From: Gammaproteobacteria bacterium
GTDB taxonomy: Bacteria > Pseudomonadota > Gammaproteobacteria > Eutrophobiales > Eutrophobiaceae
NCBI GenBank assembly: GCA_963422205.2
Contig: CAXMWX010000005.1
Span: forward strand, 772,316-836,315
Direction of reading: 5' to 3'
Length of the DNA: 64,000 nt
Position 1 is the first letter of the stretch; every line of letters starts with the position of its first letter. Below the pieces are notes generated by a model. That model saw only the letters and a program-made list of their open reading frames with translations, was not told where the DNA came from and did not search any database. The position numbers and the translations under genes are program-made. Shown here in pieces: positions 4,968 to 56,600 of the stretch.

Positions 4968-5985
4968 AGTTCAGATCGCTGAGTGGTAAGAGCATCTGCC
5001 TCTGGAGCTGTAGGCTCTAGTTTGATTCTGAGTCTGGTCAAACCAATAACTTAATACTAATAATAATAATAATGTATTTCCCGAATTCAGTGCACACATG
5101 GCACTACGGGACGACAGCCATAAAACCAAAGAAATGTCAAATAACATCAAATGAAACAACTAACCATAAGACAGAGTGCATCCAGCAAAAATAATGAAAA
5201 AGATGAGGAAATGACAAAAATCAAAAAAAAAACAAAGATGGATCTACTGACAATTCGATTACTCTAACCAAAGTGTATCTAGTAGAACACACAGTGCATC
5301 CAGCAAAAAATAATAAAGAAGATGAAGAAATGCCAAAAAAATTTAAAAAAGTCAAAGATGGATCTACTGACATTTCCGTAGCTCTAACCACAGTGAATAA
5401 AATAACAAACAAGAAATCAACACGCTCATAAATTAATAAATAAAATCGCTTGATGCCTAACTGCATGCATACCATTAGCTAAACTTATGAACTAGGAGGA
5501 GTAGGCTGCAAATATGCACATATGCAAATTTAACGGAAATTGCACTGGTAAAAAATAGGGATAGGCTGCTAATATGTAGATACGCAAATTTAACGGAAAT
5601 TGCACTGGTAAAAATTAACAAAAAATCAATCAGTCAAAATAAGAAATATCATGACAATGCTAAGGATAAAAAACTAGCAGTATTTAGAAACAAGACGTTT
5701 GAATTGAGAAACAGAAGTACTATTCACAACATTCCATGGCAAATTATTCCAATCCTGTGTACACCTTTGTGAAAAACAATATTTTCGACAATCAACTCTA
5801 ACAAAATTTGTTTTCAATTTGAATAAATGTAGTTTGAATAAATGTGTTTTCAATGTTGAATAAACTTTACAGCCTAATTCTGAATTGGTATTCACAGCTT
5901 CCCTGCTTGTTGGTCATCTTTAAACTGTTAAAGCGACTATGCGGAGAACAAGCCAAAAAGTTTAGTTGTTGTGCTGTTGAAAACA
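4968..5985 (+). mobile_element. SINE family A copy split by a LINE fragment (SINE parts ~4968-5052 and ~5886-5985)
   Basis: Head GAGTGGTAAGAGCATCTGCCTCTGGAGCTGTAG matches the copies at 13452, 31447 and 48796; sequence resumes as TATTCACAGCTTCCCTGCTTG after the insert. Confidence 0.7.
5052..5885 (-). mobile_element. 5'-truncated CR1/L2-type LINE 3' end
   Basis: ORF 5674-5895 has the typical ORF2 C-terminus (RKYCFSQRCTQDWNNLPWNVVNSTSVSQFK); (TAA)n tail at ~5055-5072; internal ~130-bp and 60-bp tandem duplications in the 3' UTR. Confidence 0.7.
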
Positions 5986-10222: not shown

Positions 10223-10952
10223 TATTGTTCACGATTTCATGGGTAACTAACAATAAGATCATTATAAACCCCTCTAATATCATAATGTTACCGAATCAAA
10301 TGCTTTCCTCATGTCGAGGGTCATTTGAGTAAGCATGTCTTGGTTTTGGATGGTGTCATAACATTCAGATACTGTAAAGTATATACAACATGAATCATTG
10401 AATGTTTTTTATGATAACCGAAGTGGTAGGGATTATGATACTATGCTTGTCAAAAAACTGACTGAATAGGCCAATATAGAGAATCATTTTTTCTAAGATT
10501 TTAGATAAGCAAGGTTGAATTGATATCAGTTGATAATCATTGGTTAAATTATTAGTAAACTAACTAGCGATAAAGGTTTTGAATAGTGTGGCATGACTGC
10601 GCTGAAAAATATTGACAATGAATCATTTGAAAAAAAGAGTAGGCCTACTCTTAGTACGAAACAAAAAACTGAACAACTACTCACGTTGCCTAAAACACTG
10701 CATTGCACCTTCAAGGGATGCGAGACTCGAATTGGAAAACCCTGCATTTGTGGCACCGTAGCATAAAGCTCAAATTTGACTTTTGAGTAAAAAATGAATT
10801 TTATTAGTTTCATGTGATTCGGATTTTTTGGTTTATTTTATGGTTAATAATTATTTTTGGTTTCAAGGAAATGACAAAAATTTCAACAATTAACATTTTT
10901 TTCCAGGTGATTAAATTTAGGTATCGTACCAGGCAATCATTTGACCTTAAAA

Positions 10953-13235
10953 ATGAAATTAAAGTTAAGTGTTCCCAAAGATAAAAGTCACGAAGATGTG
11001 GCTACTTGTGTTGCTTGGACTAATGCAGATGGAGTACTGTCAGGAGGAGATGATCACAAAATATTACGATGGAATCTTTTGACTGGAGAGCACACGGTAG
11101 CATGCAAACTGCCTTCAGATGTATACCCTACTCACATGTCACTTTTGCCCAGTCAGTCAAAAAGTGGTAAAAGTCAGGCATCAGATGTGATTGCGGTCAC
11201 TAGCTCTGATGGAAAATATCTCATTCTCTCTGGTGCTGGTCGCATTGAAAAAAGCGTAGAAGCTCACAAAGGAGCTGTTTTAAGTGGAAAATGGAGCTAT
11301 GATGGCAATGCGTTTTTGACAGCTGGTGAAGACGGCCAGATAAAAATATGGTCTCGATCAGGTATGCTTCGTTCCACTCTTGTGCATTCAGTGATTAGCA
11401 TTTATTCGGTTGCATGGAGTCCAGAGTCTGATCAAGTTTTATACACTTTTGGTAAAGAGTTGGTTATCAAGCCACTGCAGCCATCAGGCAAGGTTGTAAG
11501 TTGGAAAGCTCATGATGGAGTTGTATTGACAGTGGACTGGAATTCGGTCACTAATTTGATACTTTCTGGTGGAGAAGATTGCAAATACAAAATATGGGAT
11601 TGCTATGGACGACCTCTTTATTCAAGCACTTCACACGATTATCCAGTTACCTCAATTGCGTGGTCTTTTGACGGCAATGTATTTGCTGTTGGATCTTTCA
11701 ACAGCCTTCGTCTTTGCGATAAATCAGGTTGGTGCCATGGTCTGGAACGAACATCCACTGGAAGTATTATGAATGTAGCTTGGAGTGATGACTGTACTCA
11801 AGTTGCTGCTGCTTGTTTTGATGGTAAAGTTGTTTTTGCTCATTGCATTGAAAAGCACTTACATTGGCATGAATTTGAAGTTGTTCAAGTTAGCAGGAAG
11901 ACTGTCACTGTTCGAAATGTTTTGAACGATGCTTCTGATATAGTGGAAATGAAGGATAGGGTAATTATGGTTTCACTTGATTTCAGCCATTTGATTATTG
12001 TGACCTCTTCTCAGTGCCATGTTTACAGCACCAACAACTTCAACACCCCTTCCATATTTGAACTTCGTTCAGGCGGGGTTTCCTTTATCAAGCAAGCTCA
12101 AAAACACTTTTTGTTAAACACTGGAGCTGGTATTTTTGTGTATTCATACGAAGGACGTCAGTTGTGCAATCCCAAAATCCCTGGCAGTGTAAACACATCA
12201 CTTTTAAGCTATCGATCTGTGTCTTTGAGTAATGATGTTTTAGCAATAAAGGCAGGCCAGGATGAAAGATCAGTTTTGCTTTTTGATGCTGTCACTGGAA
12301 AGTTTGTTGGTGATGGCTCTCCACTTGTTCATAAGCTAGAAATTCAAGACATTCATTTGAGTAAGGTTGGATCAGTGGTTGATCGTTACTTGGCTTTGAT
12401 TGATAAAAATCATGACGTTTACCTTACATCGGTTCAAAAATCTGGTGCTGATTACAATCTCGTTAAACTTGCTTCAATGGTACAATCTTTGGAGTGGAAT
12501 ACATCTGTGAATATGCTTTGTGGTCTGTGTGATTCAAGTGTAATGGTGTGGTTTTACCCTCCTGTTGTTTTTATCGATCAAGCAATCTTGCCATTAACTC
12601 TGTATCAAAAAGAGCACAACGAATTAGGCAAAAACCCAACTCTTTCTTCGTATTATGAAAATACTGTTCGGGTTTCTCGAGAAAACGGATCGTTGGTATA
12701 TGTACCGATAACACCTTATCCAGCTATTTTACATCGCCTGGTAGCGTCAGGCAAATGGAATGAGGCCGTCAGACTGTGCCGTTTTGCAAAGGAGAAAACG
12801 CTTTGGGCTTGTCTCGCTTCCATGTCAGTTAAAGAGAAAGATCTCAACACCGCCGAAGTGGCGTATGCTGCTATTGAAGAAGCTGACAAAATTGAGTGCA
12901 TTGGTGACATCAAGAGTCTTCCTTCTAAAGATGCGAGAGCAGCAGAAATGTCCCTTTTCTGTGGGCACATCACTGAACCTGAAGCTGCGTTTTTGCATGC
13001 TGGAATGATCTACCGAGCTATACAACTGAACATGGACTTATTTCGTTGGGAAAGAGCGCTGGATTTGGCAATAAAGCACAAAACTCACGTCGACACTGTT
13101 CTGTGGTTTAGGCAAGTGCATTTGCAAAGATTGAACCGCAGTGAAACCAATCAAAAATTTAAAAAATTTTCCCACGGAGTTGAATTAAACTGGGAAAATA
13201 TACAAGCAAAGATAGAACAAGACCTCACGGGCTAG
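10953..13235 (+). CDS. IFT80: Intraflagellar transport protein 80 (WD40 repeat IFT-B subunit), 760 aa, single-exon CDS
   Basis: Uninterrupted ORF from ATG 10953 with recognisable IFT80 motifs: GEDGQIKIWSRSGMLRSTL, WKAHDGVVLTVDW, ILSGGEDCKYKIWDCYGRPLY, FAVGSFNSLRLCDKSGW, WERALDLAIKHKTHVDTVL. Confidence 0.96.
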   Translation: MKLKLSVPKDKSHEDVATCVAWTNADGVLSGGDDHKILRWNLLTGEHTVACKLPSDVYPTHMSLLPSQSKSGKSQASDVIAVTSSDGKYLILSGAGRIEKSVEAHKGAVLSGKWSYDGNAFLTAGEDGQIKIWSRSGMLRSTLVHSVISIYSVAWSPESDQVLYTFGKELVIKPLQPSGKVVSWKAHDGVVLTVDWNSVTNLILSGGEDCKYKIWDCYGRPLYSSTSHDYPVTSIAWSFDGNVFAVGSFNSLRLCDKSGWCHGLERTSTGSIMNVAWSDDCTQVAAACFDGKVVFAHCIEKHLHWHEFEVVQVSRKTVTVRNVLNDASDIVEMKDRVIMVSLDFSHLIIVTSSQCHVYSTNNFNTPSIFELRSGGVSFIKQAQKHFLLNTGAGIFVYSYEGRQLCNPKIPGSVNTSLLSYRSVSLSNDVLAIKAGQDERSVLLFDAVTGKFVGDGSPLVHKLEIQDIHLSKVGSVVDRYLALIDKNHDVYLTSVQKSGADYNLVKLASMVQSLEWNTSVNMLCGLCDSSVMVWFYPPVVFIDQAILPLTLYQKEHNELGKNPTLSSYYENTVRVSRENGSLVYVPITPYPAILHRLVASGKWNEAVRLCRFAKEKTLWACLASMSVKEKDLNTAEVAYAAIEEADKIECIGDIKSLPSKDARAAEMSLFCGHITEPEAAFLHAGMIYRAIQLNMDLFRWERALDLAIKHKTHVDTVLWFRQVHLQRLNRSETNQKFKKFSHGVELNWENIQAKIEQDLTG

Positions 13236-32600: not shown

Positions 32601-35600
32601 GTGGAAGTAATTACTTGCGATTTGCTTTGAGACTAACTATATCGTTCGAAAAGAACAAAAACTTACTCTCTATTCTACATCGTTCCGAAGAATTTTCATT
32701 TCCTGTTATCAAATTTTCCTGAAGTAAATACTGACTTAGACAAGCGCTTTCAGCGCAGGGAAGGCAAACTGGTCTTATAAAAGCGGTGTAATTGATAAAA
32801 CCACCCATGCCGGTCGACTCCAGCCTGCCAAAGACTGTCTGAACGTACCGCGTTCCAACTTTGATCTAAAGAGTTAAAAAATGTTGAGGCTGTTTTGAGA
32901 TAATATCAGTGATACAGTAGAAGCTCTTCATGATGAAACCAGTGTGATGCTATTGATTGACGCGTGCAGAGCTGTAACATGCCGACCAGTTTTGGATCAA
33001 ACCGGACTGAAAGTGAAGTTCGATTTAAAACACTTAAATGTTAGATTTTTTATTTCTTCAAATGGGCTTTGAGGTTTTGGTAACCAATTATCGCAGTCAA
33101 AAACAACAAGTTATTTCGAGCTGAAAAAAGGTGGTGGCATGTTTGCCGCACACTTGACCCAAATGAGATTTTCTCAAACTTAGACGGTAATCTGATTCAA
33201 AAAATCAAGGCCGACTTACAACTTTGACAACGTGTTTATGCAAACAGTGCATTATGTAAACAATTTGAATTGATACCAATTTAATGCACATAAAGATTTA
33301 CCAAGGCGATATCGTAGTCAAACTTAAAATTATTGAATTGTGGATGAGCGTGGTACTCGCTGGCTACGTAAGTTTCCACTTGTGGGGCCAACAGTTCACC
33401 AAGGTTAGGTCGTTTATGTAGCCCTGAACAAAATATAACTTTAAAGATTAGGCATAGGCTTGAGCTATTTTAAAATAAGTCATTGGCATTTTTATTCAAA
33501 TTCTCGTCTTGTTTCCTATCAATTACTTAAATTAGCTCTTAAAAAACAGCAAAAACTTCCATTTACAAAGTGAACTAGGCGAATAACCAGGAGCAGAGTC
33601 AATGGTTTCCAAATCTCATCACCCTGAAATATGAAGGCCTATTTTGCAAAAACTCAGAAATAAAACTGTATGGGCAGAACAGACGTTTAGGCAATAGTTT
33701 TCTTTTTATGTAGGCCTACTGTAGTTACAAAATTGACTTTCTGTAAAAGCGTACTATTGAAAAGTTACCGAATGTCAGTAAAATTCGATCAAGCCAGTTT
33801 CGATCTTGATAATCGTTAGCAAACAAGTGAGCAGCCGTCAAAACCCATCGATGATTGATCAAACTGCCTCCGCCGATAAAATTCCGGGTTGCATATGCCT
33901 GAAATGCATTACAGTAACATTGTTCATCACAAAGCACGCCTTCAGATGAATTTTCAGCTTCCATTGTTTCAAAGTAGCTGCCACATTTTAGGATGGTAAA
34001 GCAACCCGAAGGCAGCAGACAGACAACAGCAGCCAAATAATTACCGTACTGATGTTGGTGAGCCTATAAAAGTCGTCTCAGAACCCGTTGGCAGAATTGA
34101 GACCTCGGTTGGGTATCATCACGAAATTCCACAAAAGCATCTATCTCTTACTGCCAGAAAATGAGATAGTTATACCATAGTCCGTGACCGTGGTTATACT
34201 TATGAAATTCTGTTCCACCCAAGACCAATGAGAGGGAGTGCAGGGGGGCAAATAACCCCTGGATCCACAAACGGACATTAAGATTTTTGCGAGGTGACAT
34301 ATCACGCTTGCTTTAACTCTACATTGAAATAAAGCTTTAGCTTTGGGTCCTTGATAAGTTCGGAAAATGTGGGACGTGGGTCCTTGATAGGTTTGGAAAA
34401 TATGGGACTTTGATCAGGAATGCATACAGATTTGGAATGTATTTTGTGTTTAAAATGCAAAATACGTATTTGAAATACAAAATGGGCCTACTGCATGTAT
34501 TTTGTGTTTGTATTTTACATTTATTTTAATGTATTTTGTATTTAAATACTTTTTACAACAAGTATTTGTAATTCGTATTTTAGATACATTTGTTCCACGC
34601 AATCGATAACAAATAACCCGGAACAAAGCTGCCGCCCGAAATAAAAACGCCGTATCTAGAACTAATTTCCCTTTTTTCTAAATTTTAATAGTACTCGAAA
34701 AGCTATATCTTGTAGAGTTTTTGGATTTTTAAAATTTGCTTTGGTTCAAATGTTTTTTGTTTTTCGAAAAATTATTTTCAAAGTATTTTGAAATGTAATT
34801 AAACATTGTTAAAGTATTTGTATTTTGTAGTTACTAGTATTGCCGAAAAGTATTTTGTATTTGTATTCAAATACTTTATCGTCAATCCATTTTGTATTTG
34901 CATTTAAATACATTTGGAGAGTATTTTGCCCAAGTCTGATTGTAGGCCTATACAATGAACCCGGGCGGCGTTTTTTTAACCAAATGGAATTTAATGCACT
35001 AAATGACAAAAACTTAAGGGCTTCGTCTCATGCCCTGTGACTGTGAGTGCACAGTTGCTCTGAGCGCTCGTCTACTAACAAATGCATAACTAGTTTACCG
35101 TGGCTTAAGCACATGTTGTACGAAACAAGTTTTTATCAAATTTGCATGTAAGCACTTCGCCCACGATCTCGATTGTTTTCGTCTTCAGCATCTACTAATA
35201 TTTCCGCAGCTGTTCGTTTGGCTACCTGCTGATTGATGAGTTAATAAAAAATGACGCAAGAGTCACAGTCTATATATGGATATCATTAAAATGCTTAGAC
35301 ATGAAGAAGCCCGTGTGGAAGGTTGGTCATAAGACCTGAAACCGGGCAAAAAAAGCTAATTTCAATAAAATTGTGAAAGAATGTACTTCGTACATTGAAC
35401 GCACAGTACACTCGACTCACACATTGCTATCATTTTGTCATACAACCGGATAAATGATAGGCCTTGAAGACTTACTAAATAAACGCTGTAAACACCAATT
35501 CGACGAGAAGTTTCGCGGTTTGATCGCTCATCAGGTAGACTCAGGTTTTGAGCCCAGGACCTTGTGATTGCGAGGTTTATTTCCCTCACCACTCGGCCAC

Positions 35601-38600
35601 CGGGCTCACTATGTTTTTAGTGAATTTTTAGCCATACATACTCAAGCCCCTGCAACTGCACGCTTAGCATCGAGCAGTTAGCCTAGTTGGCATGTGTCGG
35701 CAATGGCAGGCCTGATTTTACAAGTATTAAAATAAGTGGAATCGATGTAAGCAGTAGCGAATTTAGGGGGGGTTCATTGTATAGGCCTACAATCAGACTT
35801 AGGCAAAGTACTCTCCAAATGTATTTAAATACAAATATGCCCCCCCCCCCCTTTTGACTACGCTTTTTAGTAAAAAAGAACAAAATTATGGTGCCCAGTG
35901 ATTGAAACATGTATGCCACACTCTTTTGATGGTTTCTGTAGCTTATGGCCAGGGGCGGATCCAGGGGGGTAAGATGAGGAGTATGCTTCCTCCACCAGCC
36001 ATTTTCAAAAATGTTTTTGATGTATACAATTTTCCCAGAATTTTCAACCTCTTCGATAGCGATAAGCGTTACGCCTGAAGCACGCATAATCGAAAATGTG
36101 CGAACAAAATGCATCATAATTGGCGAAGCTTTCAGAATTAGGATCAAAAAATTTAAACAAAATTTGCGTGAAAAGTATTCAAAAAGCACTAAAATAGCCA
36201 TTACAGCATTTAAATTTTCAAAAATTTTCCGGGGGAGCATGCCCCCGGACCCCCCTAGAGCTTTCATTGCTTCTCAATCAGCTTCAAATTAGCTCTGCCG
36301 AAAGAAACACACGAAAACACGCTTGAAAAAATTGTAGAAATTATGCCCCCCACCCTTTTTAAAATTTCTCGCTACGCCACTGGATGTAAGTCTGTATATA
36401 TGAAATACAACTGGATAAATCATAGGCCTTGAAGACTTACTAAATAAACGCTGTAAAAAACAATTCTACGACTAGTTTCGCGGTTTGACCACTCATCAAG
36501 TAGACTCAAGAAGACTCAGGTCCTGGGTTCAAAACCTGAGTCTACCTGATAAGCGGTCAAACCACGAAACTAGTCGTAGAATTGTTTTTACAGCGTTTAT
36601 TTAGTAAGTCTTCAAGGCCTATGATTTATCCAGTTGCATTTCATATATATAGACTTACATCGGCTCCACTTATTTCAATATCATTTTGTTGCAAAGGAAG
36701 GAGAAACTCGGCCGGGGCAACACACTGCAGGGCGCAGCAGATAAGAGTGTAAATTGTTTTAGTGGTTACCTCTTGACCTTTTTTTACGCTTTGTCGCATC
36801 ATTCTCAGAAACTCGCCATGAACAGCAGAAATCTTTTCTCAGAATGACAGCAAAGTTTAAACGTTAAAATTCACGTAGACAAATCGCCGCGTCATAAAAC
36901 GAAGCTACTAAACTGAGATGTGCAACGTGAGCGCGCTGCAGTTTGCAACACTTAAGCAGTTACAATCCCACAGCGTGAGAAACAAGACTATGCAAATGAG
37001 AATTGTGAAATAAAGTAAGATTAATCTTGGGACGCGAGTTCGAAGCTGAAACATAGCGCCCCTGAAAACGGAAAATAAAGTGACATTTCAACAAAACCAA
37101 AAGGTAAAAGCGTAACGAATCGCAAACATAAAACATATATAAAAAAAAACCTTCATAGTTTCTATGTACCCAAATTATAAGTGCGTAATAAAGTGTCACG
37201 AATAAGCGTATCAGCGAGTAAACTTGGATAGAAACAAGGTATGTTGTATTTACACACACAATAAAAAAGAATACATACTGTATAAACATGAAATCGGGCG
37301 ATTATTTTTGAAAACAAAAAGCACAAAATGACTTCATTTTCTAAACTGGGGCAATTTTAGAGAGGTCTCCAAGGATGTATTTAATCACTGTTTCACCGGA
37401 GTCTGGATTTCTAGCAAGAACAGCGACTGTGGCCCGCCTCACAATGTTACGCCCTTTACGGACTTGAGGGTGCAAGCAGTGAACCCTACCTAACCGGTAC
37501 GCTCCACGCTTCGACAAGTCTTCGGCATCACCGACAAGCACCAACTGACCGACGCTAAGATTATCACGAAGGGTTCTCCACTTGCCTCGACTTTGAAAAG
37601 CTGGAAGATAGCTTTTCATCCAACAGGACCAAAACTTTTGGGCAAGTGAAGCATTATAAAGAAAGTCCTGTCTGAGATAGCTTTTAAAGAGCAGTGTCCT
37701 TCCTGGCCTACCGCACGGGAAGTCGTCCTGACTTCCCGTCCGGTAGGCCAGGAAGGACACTGCTCTTTAGTTGCTTGCTCTTCACCCTGGCCACGTAAAG
37801 AGTTTGACTGGAATGGTGACGTAGCCACACGAGTGGATATGCGTACCACAAAGGTTAAATTCTTTAAGAATTATTTATCCGAAGGGATGAGTGATCCTGG
37901 CAAGATCATTCGTCCTGGAAGATGAATGTTTCTTACCTGAGGGCGGCTGATGAAGGCTAATAGCCAGAAACAGCGCTGTCTCGCTCTACGGTGCGGTATA
38001 CTGGAGTGCTTTGCACTGTTGGTGATGGAGTGCTGTTATAGCCTCTGACCCAACAAGCGGAAGTCGTCCTGACTTCCCGTCCGGTAGGCCAGGAAGGACA
38101 CTGCTCTTTAGTTGCTTGCTCTTCACCCTGGCCACGTAAAGAGTTTGACTGGAATGGTGACGTAGCCACACGAGTGGATATGCGTACCACAAAGGTTAAA
38201 TTCTTTAAGAATTATTTATCCGAAGGGATGAGTGATCCTGGAAAGAACATTCGTCCTGGAAGATGAATGTTTCTTACCTGAGGGCGGCTGATGAAGGCTA
38301 ATAACCAGAAACAGCGCTGTCTCGCTCTACGGTACGGTATACTGGAGTGCTTTGCACTGTTGGTGATGGAGTGCTGTTATAGCCTCTGACCCAACAAGCG
38401 GAAGTCGTCCTGACTTCCCGTCCGGTAGGCCAGGAAGGACACTGCTCTTTAGTTGCTTGCTCTTCACCCTGGCCACGTAAAGAGTTTGACTGGAATGGTG
38501 ACGTAGCCACACGAGTGGATATGCGTACCACAAAGGTTAAATTCTTTAAGAATTATTTATCCGAAGGGATGAGTGATCCTGGCAAGAACACCGTCCTGGA

Positions 38601-41600
38601 AGATGAATGTTTCTTACCTGAGGGCGGCTGATGAAGGCTATTAGCCAGAAACAGCGCTGTCTCGCTCTACGGTGTGATAGCTTTTATCATGAAATGTACT
38701 AATAGGAGTATTAGGCGCCAAATGCTGGCCTAAAAAACATGAAGGAGTAAGTGGTTTTTATCAGTGGGCTTTTCGCTCAGAGTGGTTAGGGGACGATCGT
38801 TTGCTATTCTCACGGCGTCTGAAACAAACGTTTGAAGCTCGATTGTAGAGGGCTTGCGTCGTACTTCCCCATGATGTAACGCATTTTTGATTAGTTTTAC
38901 CATACTTTTCCAGCTGCCGGCCTGGGAAGATGCGTATTCGCACCCAGTTGGTGTTACGCCGGCGCAGGGAATTATGAAATTCAGTAGAATCAATAATTAA
39001 AGGCAGCTGCTTTTCAGCAGCACAAAACGTTTTGCCATTATCTGAAAAGAAAGTGTCCACCGGCCCTTTTAAATTGGTGAATCTAGAAAAGGCTAAAACA
39101 AAACCGTTCAAATCCATGCTTGTCTATTTCAACATGTACACGAGTGAACAAACAAGTGAATAGGATGCCCCAAATTTTACATAAATTCCTGTTTTGTTTG
39201 CAAAGAAACGGACCAAAATAATCAGTGCCGCAAAACTTAAATGATTTATTGACAGCAGTGACCCGAAAAGACGAAAGGTTTGACATCAGCGTCGTCGAAC
39301 AGGTTTGACTTTGTCAAGTGCACATTTACCGCGTTCTGTTAAGCCGCTTGACGCTGGAGATGCCAGAGTCGATAACATTACCTTTGAACCAAATAATTTG
39401 AAAAAGATCATGTTGTGCTCTTGGAAGAGACACCTGAAAGAAACACTTGCTCAAATCAGCAATGCAAGCGTATCTTCCTAACCGAAAACGGATGAGAATC
39501 TTTATCAAATTATTTAAAAGGTTAGCACAACCTAAAACAGCTTGATTCAAAGACATACCGCTGTGCAAGGCAGCGCCATCATACACAACTCAAGCCTTTT
39601 CTTGCTTAGTGCCGGAGAAAGGAAGGTACCATTTGGGGCCACTAGAAGAGTTTTTTTCCACCGGAACAATCCATTCCTCGTCAATAAGCTCGCCAAAAGT
39701 ATCAGTTAACCACCTTTTTTAAATCAAAATTTTTTAAGGCTGAGCGGCGCATCGACACAATGCGGTCTAAAACATTCCGATAATTATTAGGTAGTTGTTC
39801 CACGATCGCCATATTGAGAGGCACTGGAATCCCATAACGATTATCAACAACTTTAATTTCACTTTTAACAATCTCTTTAGCCCTCTCATCGTTTCCTGAG
39901 GGCTGTAATGCCTCGTTATCTAGGCTCGATTCCCGCAAAGACTGTTTCAAATCGGCAACCTCTCTTTTAAGTTTAACGCAGCAATCCTCAATACAATCAC
40001 AATTAGCATTTAAGTTCACTTTTAAGCTGGTATATGCGCTAGTGGCGGAAGGAACACGTCCAACCATTGCCGGCAAGAGGACCAAGTTTCGTCAAAACAT
40101 AATTAGGTTTATTCGGGTCCAAATTCTCATTCTCATGCAAAACAGTAAGCAGACCTTTGTCCGTCAGACCGATCAACACGTCGATGCATTTGCGCTCAGA
40201 AATAGTCGAGATTTCAACATCATTAAAGTTGTCTAATCCTGCCACATCAACTGAGTGAGGAAGACTGCTTTCATCATCAGTAAAGTTAGAAACAACCAAA
40301 GCATTTTTAACAGAAAATTGCCTCCAGTGTAAAGAGATTCTAAACTGAAGTCTGTCCGACCCTCAGTGGTCGCGGTTTGGCCAGTCAAGATTTTAATGAT
40401 ATCAGTGGGGTCGCTCACAGTTTCAAGATGAAGTTCATTTTTTAGCCCTTCAGATATGAGGGTGGGTTGTGACGCGGTGTCGTGCTGTGCATAAGCTGGG
40501 GTTGATCTGCCCATTACTGGGTTAATCGCCCTCACAACACTAGTACGCAAAAGAACAACACTTTTAGTAGTGTCACTATGGTCTGAGATTTAAAAATACT
40601 GACCTTTTGTATGTTATCGCTAGTGTGTTTTCCATCTTCTCCATTAGGAGAAGGCGCACCAGATGCTGAACCCTGTCTTCCACCACAATCGCCCCGGGCA
40701 CCTGCAGAAGCAGGAAGCTCGAACCAATCGTGCAGTACCGCGTAGTGTTTTCTACTGCAGCTAGGTCCACACTGACGACATTTAGATGGTTGTTTACATT
40801 TACGAGCAATATGTCCCCGTAACAAACAATTTAAACAGCGGTTAGAATCCACAACAGTTTTACGTCTAATGTGTGGAGTAAATGAATTAAACTTATTGCA
40901 GTCAGCGTAAAAATGTCAACTTTTATTGTTATCACGAACAAAACAAAGTGGAGGAAGCCTCAGATTCGAATAGTTTTGGTTATTCGAGTTCTCCATAGAT
41001 CGTTCCGGTCCAGAGTTTATGTGGCTAGATCGTAGCCCCTCTTCAGACAAAACCACCTGGCGAACACAAACTTGATTATTTTTTGCGTCCCCTAGATCGA
41101 GCGTCCAGCGACTTACCTTAGTCATCGCTCCCAAAAAAGGTCTGAGCATAATCGGATGTTGACACACTCAGCTCGTGCGTCACGAAACTTTTCAAAGCGT
41201 CAAAAACTGGGCGATTTTTGTCGGACCCGATTTTTGTCAAATAGTCCAAATAATGTCTCTTTAAAAAGTTGAGCAATCGATTAACCGAATCTAGCGTAAG
41301 CTGGCCAGACAGTTTCTCAAGTTCGTTATAAGCATAGGCGTACACCTCAAGTAAGTTTAACTCCTCATCAAAGGATTTTAAAGAAGCAGTTTTAAAGGAG
41401 ATCGAAGGGTCGTGACGGATTTCTCTTACTTTAGGCTCTAAAGTAAGTCCGGCAGGAACACCGTATCTCTCCTTCAAACGTGCCAACGCTTTCTCAAATC
41501 ACTGAGACGTCGTCATAGCCTGCATGGGAGCGAAAAACAAGTTAACTATTTCCCTTGGCTCACCCACACAGGACGCTCCTAGATCTTTGAAGCGTCGCTC

Positions 41601-50600: not shown

Positions 50601-53600
50601 AATGATCCTTAGAGTAATGCCGTCGGTAGTGTTCAATCACTTCCATCAGAGTTACCCATAGCGGTAAGGTCGAAGGAGAGAAACAGACTAAGTAACAATG
50701 TAATGCTGTAGCTACTCAATCTCTTGACAGCCACTGTTTCGACTTCAATGCTGTAGCTAAATGGAAAGTTGTAACAACAATATTCATCTTACTGCATTGG
50801 ACGGCGCATAGGATAAAAAGGTCCGTGTTCGAGTTTTAGGCAGAGGGACTCGTTCGAAAAGTACGCTACAGTCTCCCCCACAAGCTGACCGTCACCGGAA
50901 ACCCACCTAAGCAGTCGCTAAGAGTTTGGGGAGGCAAATGGGTGCAGCGCACAGAAAATGTACTGGAGTTGGACCAAACTGCCGGGATCATAGCTATCGG
51001 GAACTGGAACGTTTCGTCACTGACAGGAAAAGAGCAAGAGCTTGTTTGCGAAGCCCAGCGGTATCGCCTTGATATTAAGGGAAATTCATCAACAAAGCGC
51101 CGGGGTTGTGGAACTGACGAGTTGAACGGTGGGTGAAAAATTTTCTACTCCAGTGTTGATGCAGCAATATTTGCTCAAGCTGGTGTTGGCTAACTTGTGA
51201 GTCCCAAGATGGCTGAGTATGTCACTGACTGGGTACCACTCGGAAAAAGGGTTTGTCTTCTCAAGCTAAGGCTGCAGAAGCGATTTCTATGTCTCTTGTA
51301 GGTGTATGCACCTAACATAGAATCACAGAGGGAAGCCTTTCTGGAGGAAGTTGAGGTTACACTGGGAAAAGCGACTTGGAAAAAGAAGGAAGGTATTTAT
51401 TGCAGTTCTGTGCCACCAACGGATTGCACATAATGAACATATTTTTTCAGCACAAAAGAATTCATAAGTACACCTGGTACAGAGACTTCTTGGGACCTAG
51501 CTCCCTGATTGATTTTTGTATCGTTTCGGTGGACTTGTTTTCCACCGTGTCTGATGTTCGTGTTAAAAGAGAGGCGGAGATGCCAACTGATCACCACCTA
51601 GTTGTCTGCACTTGAAAGCTTTGAAACCCGTGAGAAAACGAAAGACTTTTTGACCAAGAAAAACTTAGCGAATCCAATGGGAATTTTTGGCTGACAAAAA
51701 GGTACGAACTGTATTTGCATACAACATTGCATCTAAGTTCCAAGAACTTGCGGCCTCTACTCAAGACATTGAAGCTGAGTGGTGTTTGTTTCAAACAGCA
51801 GTCATTACGTCCGCTACTAACTGTTGTGGAAGTAAGCGTGTTGGAGGGACGAAAAGTAGAGAGAAAAGAATTCCTTGGTGGAACCAAGAAGTTAAATAAG
51901 CTATTCGTGCAACAGAAGTGGCCTATAAGGCCTGGTTTGCAATTAAGTCATCAGTTGATCTTCGTTCGCAGTACTCTGAAGTACGTAAGGCGGCAGCCAC
52001 AAAAGTTAAACTGTCTAAGGAAAGGGCCTAAAAGGAATTTAGAGAAAGGCTAGACAACGATTTCAAAATGACAAACAAAGCATTCTGGCAGACCATTCAC
52101 AGTTTGCGTGGAAAAAGATCTCAAGCCGATTTCTACATCGAAGGTTTATGTGGCACCACTTTAAAAAATGAGGATGCTATTTTGAATCGGGGGAGAGAAT
52201 GCTTTAGTGATCTTTTAAACCCAGTTGATGCTACATCGATTCAAATTCACGAGGAACTGGTTGGGGAAGATATTCAGACAACCCAAGCAGATGTGAGTGC
52301 AGTTATCAAATCATTGAAAACTGGAAAAGCACCTGAAATGTTAAAAGCAATGAACTTGTGTGGTGTTCGTTGGCTGACTCGTGTTTGTAAGGTGGCTTGT
52401 ACGACTGGGAAGCACCAAAGCAATGGCAAACTAGTGTGACAATACCTATCCACAAGAAAGGAGACAAGAGAAAATGTACCAATTGTAGGATCATATCTCT
52501 CATCAATGTCCCGGGTAAGGTCTATGCTAAATGCCTTGAAAAGAAATGCCGAGAAATAGTCGAGCCTAAACTAACGAATGTTCAGTGTGGCTTTCGTCTT
52601 AACCGAAGCACAATGGACCAGATCTTTGCTTTGCAGCAAATCTCTGAGAAGTCGTGGGAATATGCGAACGAGGTCAATGCATGTTTTGTTGATCTTGAAA
52701 AAGCATATCATCGCATTCCTAGAAACAAGCTTTGGGCGGTGCTGTTACAGTATGGCATTGGTGGCCAGTTAGTAACTGCTATTAAGTCGCTGTACATGCA
52801 TTCCGAAGTCTGTGTTCGTGTTAACAGCGCAAGGGCGATACCTTTCTGAGTAAGTGTGGGACTACGGCAAGGCTGCTCACTTTCACCTATTCTGCTTCTT
52901 ATTTATATGGATAAAATAGTTACGAAAAATGGGTGTTATCGCGGAGTTAAGATCGGTGTTGCGCTGTACAACGTCTGTTATTTGCAGATGTTCTTGTGCT
53001 ACTCGTCTCTACCCAAAATGGTCTCCTGCAAGCTCTCGACAGGTTTTTGGATGCATGCTCTGTGGCCGATGAAAATCAGCGCAACAAAAACAGTAACCAT
53101 ATGTGCCTGTCCAGACAACCAAAGCAGTGCTCTCTCCAAATTGGTGGAGTACCACTAAAACAGTCTGAGAAATTTAAGTACCTCGGCGTCTCATTCACAA
53201 GTGATGGCAGACAACACAGCGAATTGGATATCCGCATCGGAAAAGCAAGTGCAGTAATGCGCCAGCTCCACCGATCTGTAGTACTGAAACGGGAGCTTTG
53301 TACCAGGGCAAAGCTTCCCATGTTCAGATCAGTCTATATTCCTATTCTGACTTATGGCCAATTGGCCTTGAGTGTTGGATGATGAATGAGAAAGTGAGAT
53401 CTCGAGCTCAAGCAGCCGCCATGGGATTCTTGCGAAGAATTAGCGGTTTGACTTTGTTGGACAAGGTTAAAAGTGCAGATATTCGTGAACCTCTAAACAT
53501 CGAAAAGCTGCTTTTCCGATTAGAAAGATCGCAACTGCGTTAATATGGACATGTGACCCGAATGTCCCACGAAAGAACAGCCAAAAAAATGCTCTGTTCA

Positions 53601-56600
53601 ACACCGATTGGTCGAAGGCCTAGAGGCCATCCCAGAACTCGATGGCGAGATTACGTAGATCTTAGTTGGTCTCGCCTTGGCATCCCAGCAGAGCATCTAT
53701 CCTTTGTAGGCTTGTAGCAGGGGATCGAGATGCTTGGAGGCTTCAACTCGAGCTGCTGCCCCCGCGACCTCCCAAGAATAAGTGGGTCTACAAAATGAAT
53801 GAACGTACAGTACTGGTAGCATATTCTAGTTTATTGATTGATTGATTATTTATTTATCCATGAACTAACAATTAGACCAACAAATACAGATAACAATGGA
53901 AAAATAAAACAAAATAAAATAGAAACAAAGCAAAAAAGAACACTAACAAAGACCACCAAATATAAATAACAATGCACGGGAGACTGCGAAGGGACCTTAG
54001 GGTCATGGAGTCAAGCAGCCATCCTTACTAAAGCGGATAAGCTAAAATTTAAAGCGTGGCATAATTTGCATACAATCCATAAATAAACATTGTATATAGA
54101 CAGTTTATTCACCTTACCCTTCAGGAACTCCATCATCAAAGTTAATTCTTCACAAGAAAATGAAGTTTAAGTTTTTGATTAAACCTGCGCACAGAACTTG
54201 ATTTTATGTCATCGGGAATATCATTCCAAATCTTGACGCCTTGATATTTAAGTGAGCGTTGCAACTTCGAGGTGCGATAGAGTGGAATCTACTAGTTACA
54301 ACAAGTTGCTTGTAATCTGGTTTTTACTGGGTGATGTTCGTTTAGTTTGACGAAAAAATTGTTGAATGGAGTAGGGAGCATATCTTTGAGGTGAGAATAG
54401 ACAAAAAGACCCAATTCTGATTTCACAAGGTCATGGAGTTGCAAATGTTTAATGACTTATAAATGCTACTTAGCGCATAATGATGAGCATGTTTACCACA
54501 TATTAGTTTTATTGCTTTGTCTTGGAGTTTGCTGATCGGGGCCGTGTAAGTTTGGTACGTGGAAAACCATATTGTAACGACGTATAACAAGTGAGAGTGG
54601 AAGAGTGCAAAATACAGATGAAGAAGGGATTTCTTAGGGAGATAATTTTTAACTTTCTGCAAAATGCCCAATGACCGAGAGAGCTTCGTATAGAGAAGTT
54701 TGATGTGTGTTTTGAAGTTAAGCTCGTCATCGATATAAAGCCTAAATATTTTGCTGATTTGAAGATGGTGATAGGTGATCCATCATAAAATATGTTAATT
54801 TCGGGAGAAGTTGATGGCAAGTTGAATTTAGGTGGTATGATTAACAAATTTGACTTTTCGGAGTTGAAAAGTTGGAGTTGAGTGATCATGATTAATCAGT
54901 TTTGAAAGACTGTCAATTGTATCAGCACTGTGAACTAGACACGTGTCATCCGCAAACAGACGAGGTTTCACCAAAGTGCAATTGTCCAGATCATTGCTGC
55001 AAAGTATAAAAAGAAGAGGACCAAGAGTTGACTCTTGAGGGACTCCCCATTTGATAGGGACGAGTTTAGAGGATTGTTCATCAATCACAATAAACTGCTT
55101 TCTTTGCGAAAGATAAGATTTTAAAAGATCATTTGCAGTACCTCTAATCCCATAATGCTCCAATTTATTAATTAATATATCATGGTCAACAGTATCAAAT
55201 GCTTTCTTGATGTCTAAAACACTAACACCAGTGAATTTTTTATCGTTGATATTATCATTGGCCATAGTAATAACATCAGTAACTGCATGCTTTGTAAAAT
55301 GCCCAGCTCGAAAGCCATATTGAAACGGTGAGATTATGGAGTGCTTGCGGATAAAAGTGTCCAGTCGCTGATACAACAATTTTTCAAAAATCTTGCAGAA
55401 ACTAAAAAGAAGGGAAATAGAACGATGGTTAGTAGCTACACGCTTATTGCCAGATTTAAAAACAAGAACCACTTTGGCAAGTTTTAAAATGTCGGAAAAT
55501 ATTCCGAAAGCAAATGAGTAGTTCACGAATTCTGAAAGAGGTTCAGAAACTATAGCGGCAGCAACCTTAATAAAGTAAGGCGAAATATTGTCGGGACCAC
55601 AGGCTTTTTTATTGACAAGGGCGTTGTTAATTAATACGAAAACTTCAGTTGGAACTGTAGGTTGCAGAAAGATTGAGTCAACCACTCTATCGTGAAGGAA
55701 TTCGTTAAAACTTGAAGAATCGGGCAATATATTCAAATTATCAACGACTGTAGTAGCTACTGTACTGAAATAATCACCAAAGTGTTTTGCAATTAATTTG
55801 GGATCATGGACAACAGTGCCATCGCTTGCTTCAAGCACTTGAATCGTATGTTTCGCAGTTTTCTTGGGCAGCAAGCTTTTAATGATGTCCCATGTTCTGC
55901 GAATATTACTCTTGCAATTATGAAGTTCGCTCCCAAAATAGCTTTTTTTTTGCTGCGTTTAGCTTCTTCAGCTTTGACGTCAAGTTTTGTTGCGCAATTT
56001 TACAACCAAGATAAAACCCAATGAAGCTATGGAGCAATATATTGTGCACTTCTCATTCAAAGTCAGAGGGGCAAGTACCGAATTGCCCCCTCCACAGACG
56101 CCTACTTGTGTGTGCATATCAATTTGGCACTTTTAGCTTTGCATCAAACTTTGTTGTGCATATTATAACCAGGGCTGGAAATCGATACCCAAAAAAGTAA
56201 AGAAATAATCGAGAATAATCGATTTTGATGGTAGTTTAAGAAAGCAAAGAATAAAGAATATTGTAATCGATATCCGATATTACATTGAACATTTAGCGAT
56301 GTACTCCACACATTTTTTGTGATGTCCTCACATTCATGCGGTAACTTAAAGACAAACGACGGACAAAGTATATGACATTATTCATGCGAAGCAACTTTGC
56401 TTTAAGCATTTTTTGGCACAAAAAAATTATCAGATAAAACAAGGTAATGACATACCGACGATTATTTTAAATTTACCAAAATGAGATAAACTAACCTGGA
56501 CATAAAGAATCGAATATGGAATATCGAATTGAGCCGAAAAAAAAGTAAAGACAAGGCATATTCGATACTCATTCAAAAAACTAAAAGCTCCAGTGCATTG

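Follow-up and report, generated by a model that had tools for sequence, protein, structure and literature searches.

A hammerhead retrozyme insertion in ascidian-like DNA within a bacterial genome record, with junctions that point to a Penelope-like integration mechanism

The stretch of DNA analysed here (the window, 64 kb) is C7:772316-836315 of an assembly of 2.99 Mb in 14 contigs, which is rated as a nearly complete and uncontaminated bacterial genome. The region 37676-38686 of the window contains a real, well-preserved hammerhead retrozyme insertion in what is an ascidian-like genome, and the family that it represents is a tunicate addition to the known animal retrozymes without long terminal repeats (non-LTR retrozymes). 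The most interesting part of the insertion is the architecture of its junctions, which, by analogy with described elements, points to a Penelope-like integration mechanism. As a whole, the locus is probably explained by the insertion of a non-autonomous, non-coding animal non-LTR retrozyme into ascidian nuclear DNA, via a proposed route that would involve a circular RNA and the reverse transcriptase (RT) of a Penelope-like element (PLE).

Structure of the insert

An earlier reading of the window from its letters (the sequence-only reading) had described a non-coding insertion into BEL sequence, composed of near-identical tandem units and bounded by an 11-bp target site duplication (TSD). The TSD is indeed a perfect direct repeat, and Tandem Repeats Finder (TRF) identified one array at 37718-38673 with a period of 341, 2.8 copies, 98% matches and 0% indels. 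The frame that flanks the insert matches Pfam DUF5641, the C-terminal domain of BEL/Pao integrases, which supports the stated nature of the target. The insert proper is 989 nt long (37687-38675), lies within an older BEL/Pao remnant and is made up of a 5'-truncated unit, two full units (341 and 340 nt), and a fourth unit represented by its first 12-14 nt. It ends 14 nt past the last cleavage site, as had been stated, with homology to the unit ceasing at 38673/38674, and the unit is GC-richer than its surroundings (0.49 vs 0.33-0.44 in 2-kb bins of the window), also as stated. Besides the units and the TSD, no terminal direct repeats were found in the insert. The features are as follows, with unit positions numbered from the cleavage site.

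37676-37686 (no strand): left copy of the TSD, 11 bp; the final 2 nt could also be part of the inverted piece
37687-37717 (-): inverted 5' piece, the reverse complement of unit positions 98-128 with one mismatch
37718-37736 (+): unit hairpin at the joint of inverted and forward sequence; 7-bp stem and 5-nt loop, the loop in forward orientation
37718-37980 (+): first unit (unit 0), 5'-truncated, 263 nt, ending at the first cleavage site (TRF, alignment)
37981-38321 (+): full unit 1, 341 nt, the predicted monomer between two cleavage sites
38322-38661 (+): full unit 2, 340 nt (TRF, alignment, fold)
38662-38675 (+): closing 12-14 nt, which form the 3' strand of hammerhead helix I and end at the major 3' end A
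38676-38686 (no strand): right copy of the TSD, 11 bp (sequence, repeat family D2)
37934-37993 (+): hammerhead domain 1, with C3-A9 at 37947-37953, G12-A14 at 37967-37969 and C17 at 37980
38275-38334 (+): hammerhead domain 2, its helix II weakened by one further change, with C17 at 38321
38615-38675 (+): hammerhead domain 3, complete to the insert end, with C17 at 38661
37341-37675 (-): BEL/Pao target remnant interrupted by the insert, integrase C-terminal domain (frame 37341-37676; DUF5641, E 8.6e-14, 52 bits)

The sequence-only reading missed a feature of the 5' end, where the sequence of 37737-37767 recurs in reverse complement, with one mismatch, as the initial 31 nt of the insert. The resulting inverted pair (I3) has arms of 51 nt that are 88% complementary and a spacing of 5 nt, and its pivot is the unit's own hairpin. 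The 5' hairpin was also considered as a microRNA and rejected, its scores against mir-1266 (43 bits) and mir-3127 (41 bits) being below the cut-offs of 70 and 82, respectively; these matches arise because the inverted piece makes a long perfect hairpin.

The three units of the window differ at 7 sites over ~945 aligned nt. Six of the differences are singletons, and one variant state is common to units 1 and 2, as compared with unit 0 and the outgroup provided by a second copy on contig C11, described below. The same unit position (37993/38334/38674) reads G/A/G in successive units.

The hammerhead motif

One type I hammerhead had been assigned to each unit. A core pattern consisting of the core heptamer, 9-20 nt, GAAAC, 4-12 nt and GTC was matched four times in the 64-kb window, versus 0.00 matches expected as judged by 100 shuffles. 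Three of the matches (37947-37980, 38288-38321 and 38628-38661) occupy the same place in each unit and put C17 at 37980, 38321 and 38661, in agreement with the assignment, and the spacing between these cleavage sites agrees with the monomers of 341 and 340 nt that had been predicted. The conserved core (C3 U4 G5 A6 N7 G8 A9, G12 A13 A14, A15.1-U16.1 and H17) is present in all three window copies and in two of the three C11 copies; the third C11 hammerhead has an altered helix III and an altered cleavage triplet.

Helix I comprises 6-7 bp, a 2x2 internal loop and a 4-bp distal stem. It is built from both ends of the unit and closes across the unit boundary, giving a three-helix motif with an open helix I, in line with a type I motif that sits in a tandem or a circle. 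The 10 nt of helix III make up a perfect palindrome and are predicted to form 2-4 bp in the monomer and 10 bp in a dimer. In PMC4209133, the double-hammerhead arrangement is given as the rule for animal type I hammerheads. Two 65-nt domains of the window cofold at -50.3 kcal/mol, versus 2 x -19.9 kcal/mol for the separate domains (~10 gained), with a 10-bp intermolecular helix III.

At positions 10.1/11.1, a G-C pair is usual in hammerheads. In the window copies, helix II is of 4 bp with an A.A mismatch at 10.1/11.1, and unit 1 has an additional change in this helix, while the C11 copies have G10.1-C11.1 and a helix II of 5 bp. A search with hammerhead models, which had been named as a check on the assignment, gave full-length matches to Hammerhead_HH9 (RF02275), those of the window at lax thresholds, and all of them scored below the Rfam gathering cut-off of 52 bits. 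Over the whole model, the C11 copies scored 31.1, 31.0 and 25.7 bits (E 1.4e-5 to 7.6e-4) and the window copies 19.2, 18.0 and 16.8 bits (E 0.09-0.56), the low scores of the latter being due to A at both 10.1 and 11.1, together with the extra helix II change in unit 1. As the gathering score is a threshold set by curators and not a property of a ribozyme, the hammerhead call rests on the core and the helices. One axolotl retrozyme family is likewise mismatched at the base of helix II (U.U) and cleaves poorly as a monomer (PMC7229834); given this precedent, the A.A mismatch is a known sort of weakness and does not disqualify the motif. In the search with Rfam models, the ribozyme was found on one polarity (+) only, both in the window and in C11.

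Predicted fold of the unit RNA and coding capacity

Folding of the circularised monomer, another check that had been proposed, gave a highly self-paired structure of -127.5 kcal/mol with 70% of the bases paired (unit 1, 341 nt), in which the local hairpins named by the sequence-only reading are present. The z-score of this fold is -5.4, and none of 200 dinucleotide shuffles was equally stable; the circular fold of unit 2 (340 nt) is at -122.4 kcal/mol with z -4.7. The complementary strand gave a weaker fold (-103.2 kcal/mol, z -3.0), and since the opposite strand folds clearly worse, the models point to the hammerhead strand as an RNA under selection. When two units of the window and two of C11 were folded to a consensus, 98% of the 402 pair cells stayed paired, and between the window and C11, which represent two lineages, three of the 101 pairs are changed on both sides and about a dozen compatibly on one side. 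This conservation of predicted pairs is weak support for the structure, as it comes from two lineages and the structure was derived from the same sequences.

No open frame runs round the 341-nt circle on either strand, and the longest stop-to-stop frames are of 74 aa (+) and 84 aa (-), in line with the non-coding nature that had been claimed. With a ribozyme in one polarity and nothing open round the circle, the unit is neither a viroid-like replicon nor a coding circle.

A second copy and the dispersal of the family

The dispersed copies anticipated by the sequence-only reading are represented in the assembly by a second array, located at C11:1667-2624, with its own 13-bp duplication at an unrelated site; the TSDs of the two copies, of 11 and 13 bp, both exceed the 4 bp that serve as a criterion for such copies. 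The C11 array contains ~2.5 units, 84-85% identical to those of the window, sits in a 3-kb low-GC stretch at the contig end and also carries an inverted piece at its 5' end. Beyond the two arrays and the inverted pieces, a search of the assembly with a profile of the unit (nhmmer) revealed no further copies. In the third C11 unit (L010:2436-2624), an extra piece of ~23 nt lies directly past the cleavage site and a 32-nt insertion within the hairpin region; the same ~23-nt piece recurs at the joint between inverted and forward sequence (L010:1745-1770). From the sequence, the template of the C11 copy seems to have carried an earlier rearrangement.

Three public sequencing runs of one study (X1, X2 and X3) were compared, as contigs, with 37400-38950. 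Matching contigs numbered 5456, 3631 and 1217, respectively, and the summed word depth, which is not a copy number, was 1e5-8e5 on the unit versus 22-41 on single-copy flank contigs; the depth of the BEL flank was many times that of single-copy contigs. Contigs leave the unit at 37992 into unlike sequence in at least 46 (X1), at least 46 (X2) and at least 30 (X3) records, with an agreement of the continuation consensus behind 37992 of only ~0.4, and a second exit point into unlike sequence, at 37773/38455, is used in at least 7-9 records. The retrozyme family has very many copies, and is abundant and dispersed. One X1 contig crosses the 3' junction of the window copy with 0 differences over 305 nt. 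In X2, an empty-site contig was found in which 37678 is joined to 38684 with five unaligned letters, a single 11-bp site and no insert; since 21 of 158 letters on its left side are different, a paralogue is more probable than an allele of the window locus. Because the runs may include the window's own sample, the contigs are no independent confirmation of this locus, but they show many other insertions. A preference for AT-rich targets was considered and dropped, as the majority consensus of unlike sequences from a 37% GC genome gives the same picture. Elsewhere, two hammerhead patterns had 0 matches in the genome_contigs and metagenome_contigs collections and one pattern had 0 in viral_contigs, and the unit sequence matched nothing in the contig collections scanned.

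A unit of such abundance might belong to a hammerhead satellite, or have been multiplied locally at the DNA level by unequal crossing-over or replication slippage, with no RNA involved, and the hammerheads of newts, cave crickets and schistosomes were first described as satellite DNA. This is very improbable here, given the short arrays of 2-3 units with perfect flanking duplications of differing length at unrelated sites, the empty-site contig in X2, the fixed 3' ends followed by many unlike continuations, and the inverted 5' pieces. A local duplication of BEL sequence had itself been named as an outcome that would speak against a retrozyme; the flanks have no other copy in the assembly, and the insert is therefore not such a duplication.

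Origin of the surrounding DNA

The bacterial genome has a GC content of 0.52-0.56, and that of C7 from ~708000 to the contig end is ~0.37, with no long bacterial-type open reading frames (ORFs). Both C7 (~708000 to end) and C11 (1 to ~3000) join bacterial DNA of ~0.55 GC to animal-like DNA, which is ORF-poor, ranges in GC from 0.29 to 0.48 and amounts to ~131 kb in total. These joins are most likely assembly chimeras. Gene transfer into the bacterium was rejected as an alternative, as the low-GC tail lacks long bacterial-type ORFs and contains an animal IFT80 gene and animal retroelements; a scan of the region for bacterial promoters and terminators was set aside as irrelevant to animal DNA.

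The only long frame in the tail (10911-13232, +) is uninterrupted and encodes a full-length IFT80 of 774 aa. IFT80 is a ciliary transport protein of eukaryotes. Its nearest named relatives are ascidian (Clavelina lepadiformis, 70% identity, Ciona intestinalis, 65%, Ciona savignyi, 62%, and Styela clava, 55%), in keeping with the tunicate host suggested by the sequence-only reading; fishes are at ~55%. The absence of introns from a gene this large suggests a retrocopy, or a lineage poor in introns. As judged from these sequences, the location of the insert in ascidian-like nuclear DNA is supported.

Given that C7 and C11 both join bacterial to animal-like DNA, the tandem might itself be an artefact, namely a repeat collapsed or expanded in a chimeric contig. 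Tandem and inverted structures of the PLE type are troublesome for assemblies (PMC8557442), and none among the run records listed spans the whole stretch 37400-38950. However, the three units differ at 7 sites and hence are not copies of one collapsed read, the 3' junction is crossed by the X1 contig described above, and the same architecture is found independently in the C11 copy, so that an artefact is hardly credible. The number of units could be wrong with the reading of the insertion unchanged.

Other repeats are present in the host DNA. Remnants of LINE-type RTs are located at 52391-53158 (+), 54828-55958 (-) and C7:767602-768042 (-); none is Penelope-like, and the best solved relatives are LINE-1 ORF2p (E ~1e-17 for the 376-aa frame). 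The fourth match to the hammerhead core pattern (35502-35534, -) lies within a tRNA-like, SINE-type repeat, in which helix I is unpaired and no Rfam match was obtained. Two more copies of this repeat (36405-36508 and 36518-36636) are ~90% identical, form an inverted pair 9 nt apart and have C3 or G8 changed. The repeat may be a decayed hammerhead-bearing SINE as in schistosomes, or the match may be due to chance. A tRNA match at 4969-5040 (+; 31.6 bits, several non-standard pairs), the sole Rfam match in the window at the gathering score, may be a tRNA-derived repeat rather than a working gene.

Comparison with known hammerhead elements

Animal non-LTR retrozymes, as described in PMC7229834, have tandem units of 150-450 bp with a type I hammerhead, occur as dimers upward, are low in GC, lack LTRs, a primer binding site (PBS) and a polypurine tract (PPT), are flanked by duplications of >4 bp and are expressed as abundant linear and circular monomer RNA, the circles being highly paired. 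Known units are of ~220-240 nt in corals, ~350-390 nt in mussels and 330/350 nt in axolotl (PMC7229834; Cervera and de la Pena 2020). The assignment of the insert to this kind by the sequence-only reading stands, as the insert agrees with every sequence criterion given in PMC7229834. It shares with metazoan retrozymes the tandem units of a few hundred nt (here 341) with one type I hammerhead each and a weak palindromic helix III, the lack of an LTR or an ORF (PBS and PPT being considered without a formal model search), TSDs of >4 bp, thousands of copies and a highly self-paired predicted circle. Its GC content of 0.49 is at the upper edge of the <45-50% of that group. The differences are the tunicate host and the status of the circular RNA, which is only predicted here.

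For the genome of the tunicate Didemnum vexillum, 9 type I hammerhead loci are listed and not analysed further (PMC8704543). A general review that deals with retrozymes mentions tunicates in connection with R2 elements. In the main-text retrozyme literature searched, tunicates or ascidians are not named as retrozyme hosts; supplementary species lists, which the search did not cover, may name them. Within that scope, no account of a tunicate family was found, in accord with the earlier suggestion that it is undescribed.

Sm-alpha of schistosomes and newt satellite 2 are short repeats whose type I hammerhead is most active in dimeric form, and have been described as a SINE-like element and a satellite. 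They differ from the family described here in that the insertion junctions are resolved in the latter; a closer analogue of Sm-alpha in the window is the tRNA-like repeat with the decayed hammerhead-like core at 35502-35534. Plant LTR retrozymes have type III hammerheads in their LTRs, a PBS and a PPT, and 4-bp duplications, and viroids of the Avsunviroidae have no DNA copy and carry ribozymes in both polarities. What these have in common with the present family is a small RNA processed by hammerheads, which here could circularise and is predicted to fold compactly; unlike in the Avsunviroidae, the ribozyme is on the + strand only.

Integration footprint and proposed mechanism

The family has two fixed 3' ends, a major one at unit position 12 (A), which is the last base of the distal stem of helix I, and a minor one at position 134 (B). 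In the window, the insert terminates at A and the inverted piece starts at position 128-130, which is 4-6 nt short of B; in C11, B is the exact end of the copy and A the exact start of its inverted piece. Each insertion is thus the mirror image of the other. No mention of fixed 3' ends, of tails or of inverted 5' pieces was found in the available parts of the retrozyme literature searched.

These marks resemble those of PLEs (Penelope/Poseidon, Neptune and Naiad), whose insertions, according to Craig et al. (PMC8557442), are heavily truncated at the 5' end, form partial tandems, have a 5'-truncated copy in inverted orientation beside their 5' end and are flanked by duplications that vary in length. 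A purified PLE protein cuts and extends both DNA strands, and starts reverse transcription from fixed internal RNA sites downstream of the hammerhead, with no homology to the target (PMC11167929, Frangieh et al.). Common to PLEs and the family described here are the partial tandems, the inverted 5'-truncated copy, the variable TSDs, a hammerhead near the repeat boundary and, on the route proposed below, fixed internal RT starts downstream of the hammerhead and the use of both DNA strands. In contrast to PLEs, neither the element nor the ~131 kb of host DNA yielded an RT or GIY-YIG gene, the start sites are 122 nt apart here versus 30-40 nt, and the hammerhead is canonical here and minimal in PLEs. 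Having no ORF, the element is not an autonomous PLE, and only its integration footprint is PLE-like.

The likeness could also be explained if the insert were a broken-off stack of the pseudo-LTRs of an autonomous PLE, with the coding part lost by 5' truncation. Pseudo-LTRs of PLEs bear hammerheads, PLE insertions are 5'-truncated, tandem and inverted (PMC8557442, PMC4209133), and Xenopus retrozymes resemble, and are related to, such pseudo-LTRs (bioRxiv 10.64898/2026.07.22.740005). Such an origin is nevertheless quite improbable, as both of the two copies consist purely of multimerised ~340-nt units and show no remains of a reading frame, the hammerhead is exactly the point at which the unit closes on itself, and the hammerheads, described as minimal variants in PLEs (PMC7229834), are canonical here and include a distal helix I.

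For a non-autonomous retrozyme, the following route is proposed. Arrays would be transcribed as multimers, in which neighbouring hammerheads would pair via the palindromic helix III to form a double hammerhead and cut after C17, and a host RNA ligase would close the 341-nt monomers into highly paired circles. Since it contains two full units between three cleavage sites, the window locus itself may, on this model, be a source of circles. The RT of a PLE would then initiate on a nicked target, using internal site A or B, and make more than two turns of the circle, which would produce the tandem. Nicking of the other DNA strand and its extension by 30-80 nt from the other start site would yield the short inverted piece, and the two DNA copies would join, in the window at the palindromic hairpin of the unit.

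The circle as template is the favoured inference, following the discussion in PMC7229834. Alternatively, the same retroelement could have been copied from a linear, uncleaved multimer, or the enzyme could have jumped between monomer RNAs; template jumps have been proposed for the partial tandems of PLEs. The differences between the units, with the state common to units 1 and 2 and not to unit 0 and with the G/A/G pattern, are accounted for by a heterogeneous linear multimer, or by jumping between RNAs, no less well than by repeated turns of one circle, and the fixed 3' ends, located 12 and 134 nt beyond the cleavage site, do not coincide with it. On the other hand, seven differences in ~945 nt could be due to copying errors or later mutation, internal start sites are equally compatible with a circle, and the RNA of animal retrozymes is mostly circular where it has been measured (PMC7229834). 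A template other than the circle is considered unlikely, though clearly less so than the pseudo-LTR origin.

A further and more tentative proposal, which we hold to be less likely than not, is that the junctions are in vivo footprints of reverse transcription primed by both target strands from two discrete sites on one retrozyme RNA. If the nascent cDNA snapped back at the hairpin, this would also give the inverted piece of the window, but would leave unexplained why the outer edges lie at or near A and B in both loci.

Several points weigh against the retrozyme explanation or parts of it. No hammerhead in the window or in C11 reaches the Rfam gathering score, the lowest-energy fold of the isolated 65-nt domain is not the hammerhead fold, and the A.A mismatch, with the second helix II defect in unit 1, may lead to poor cleavage, as judged from the sequence. 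With regard to the template, the 7 unit differences, the shared state and the G/A/G pattern are not predicted by one pass round a single circle, and uncleaved RNA is the main substrate of the PLE enzyme in vitro (PMC11167929). The agreement of the inverted edges with A and B is based on two loci and is a post hoc observation. All of the run evidence comes from one study that may include the source sample, in the form of contigs for which the library type is unrecorded. Finally, metazoan non-LTR retrozymes are marked by co-occurrence with PLEs in the same genome, and no PLE (RT plus GIY-YIG) was found in the ~131 kb of host DNA, which is a small share of the genome; three GIY-YIG matches lie in the bacterial parts, the RT remnants in the host DNA are LINE-like (RVT_1), and a search of a protein atlas for an autonomous partner returned only generic RT clusters.

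Implications

In animals, retrozymes provide abundant small circular RNAs from the genome itself, and their movement has been argued from indirect evidence. The tunicate family fills a gap between the retrozymes of invertebrates and those of vertebrates, and its clean junctions provide a sequence-level handle on which enzyme copies retrozyme RNA and where it starts. For databases, the case is that of a bacterial genome record carrying ~131 kb of animal host DNA, which matters for claims on gene content and gene transfer. If the reading of two start sites used on both strands is true, it would tie animal retrozymes to the PLE enzyme by mechanism, beyond co-occurrence or likeness of sequence, and would identify which RNA signals adjacent to the hammerhead bring in the enzyme, in a subphylum of chordates without reported retrozymes.

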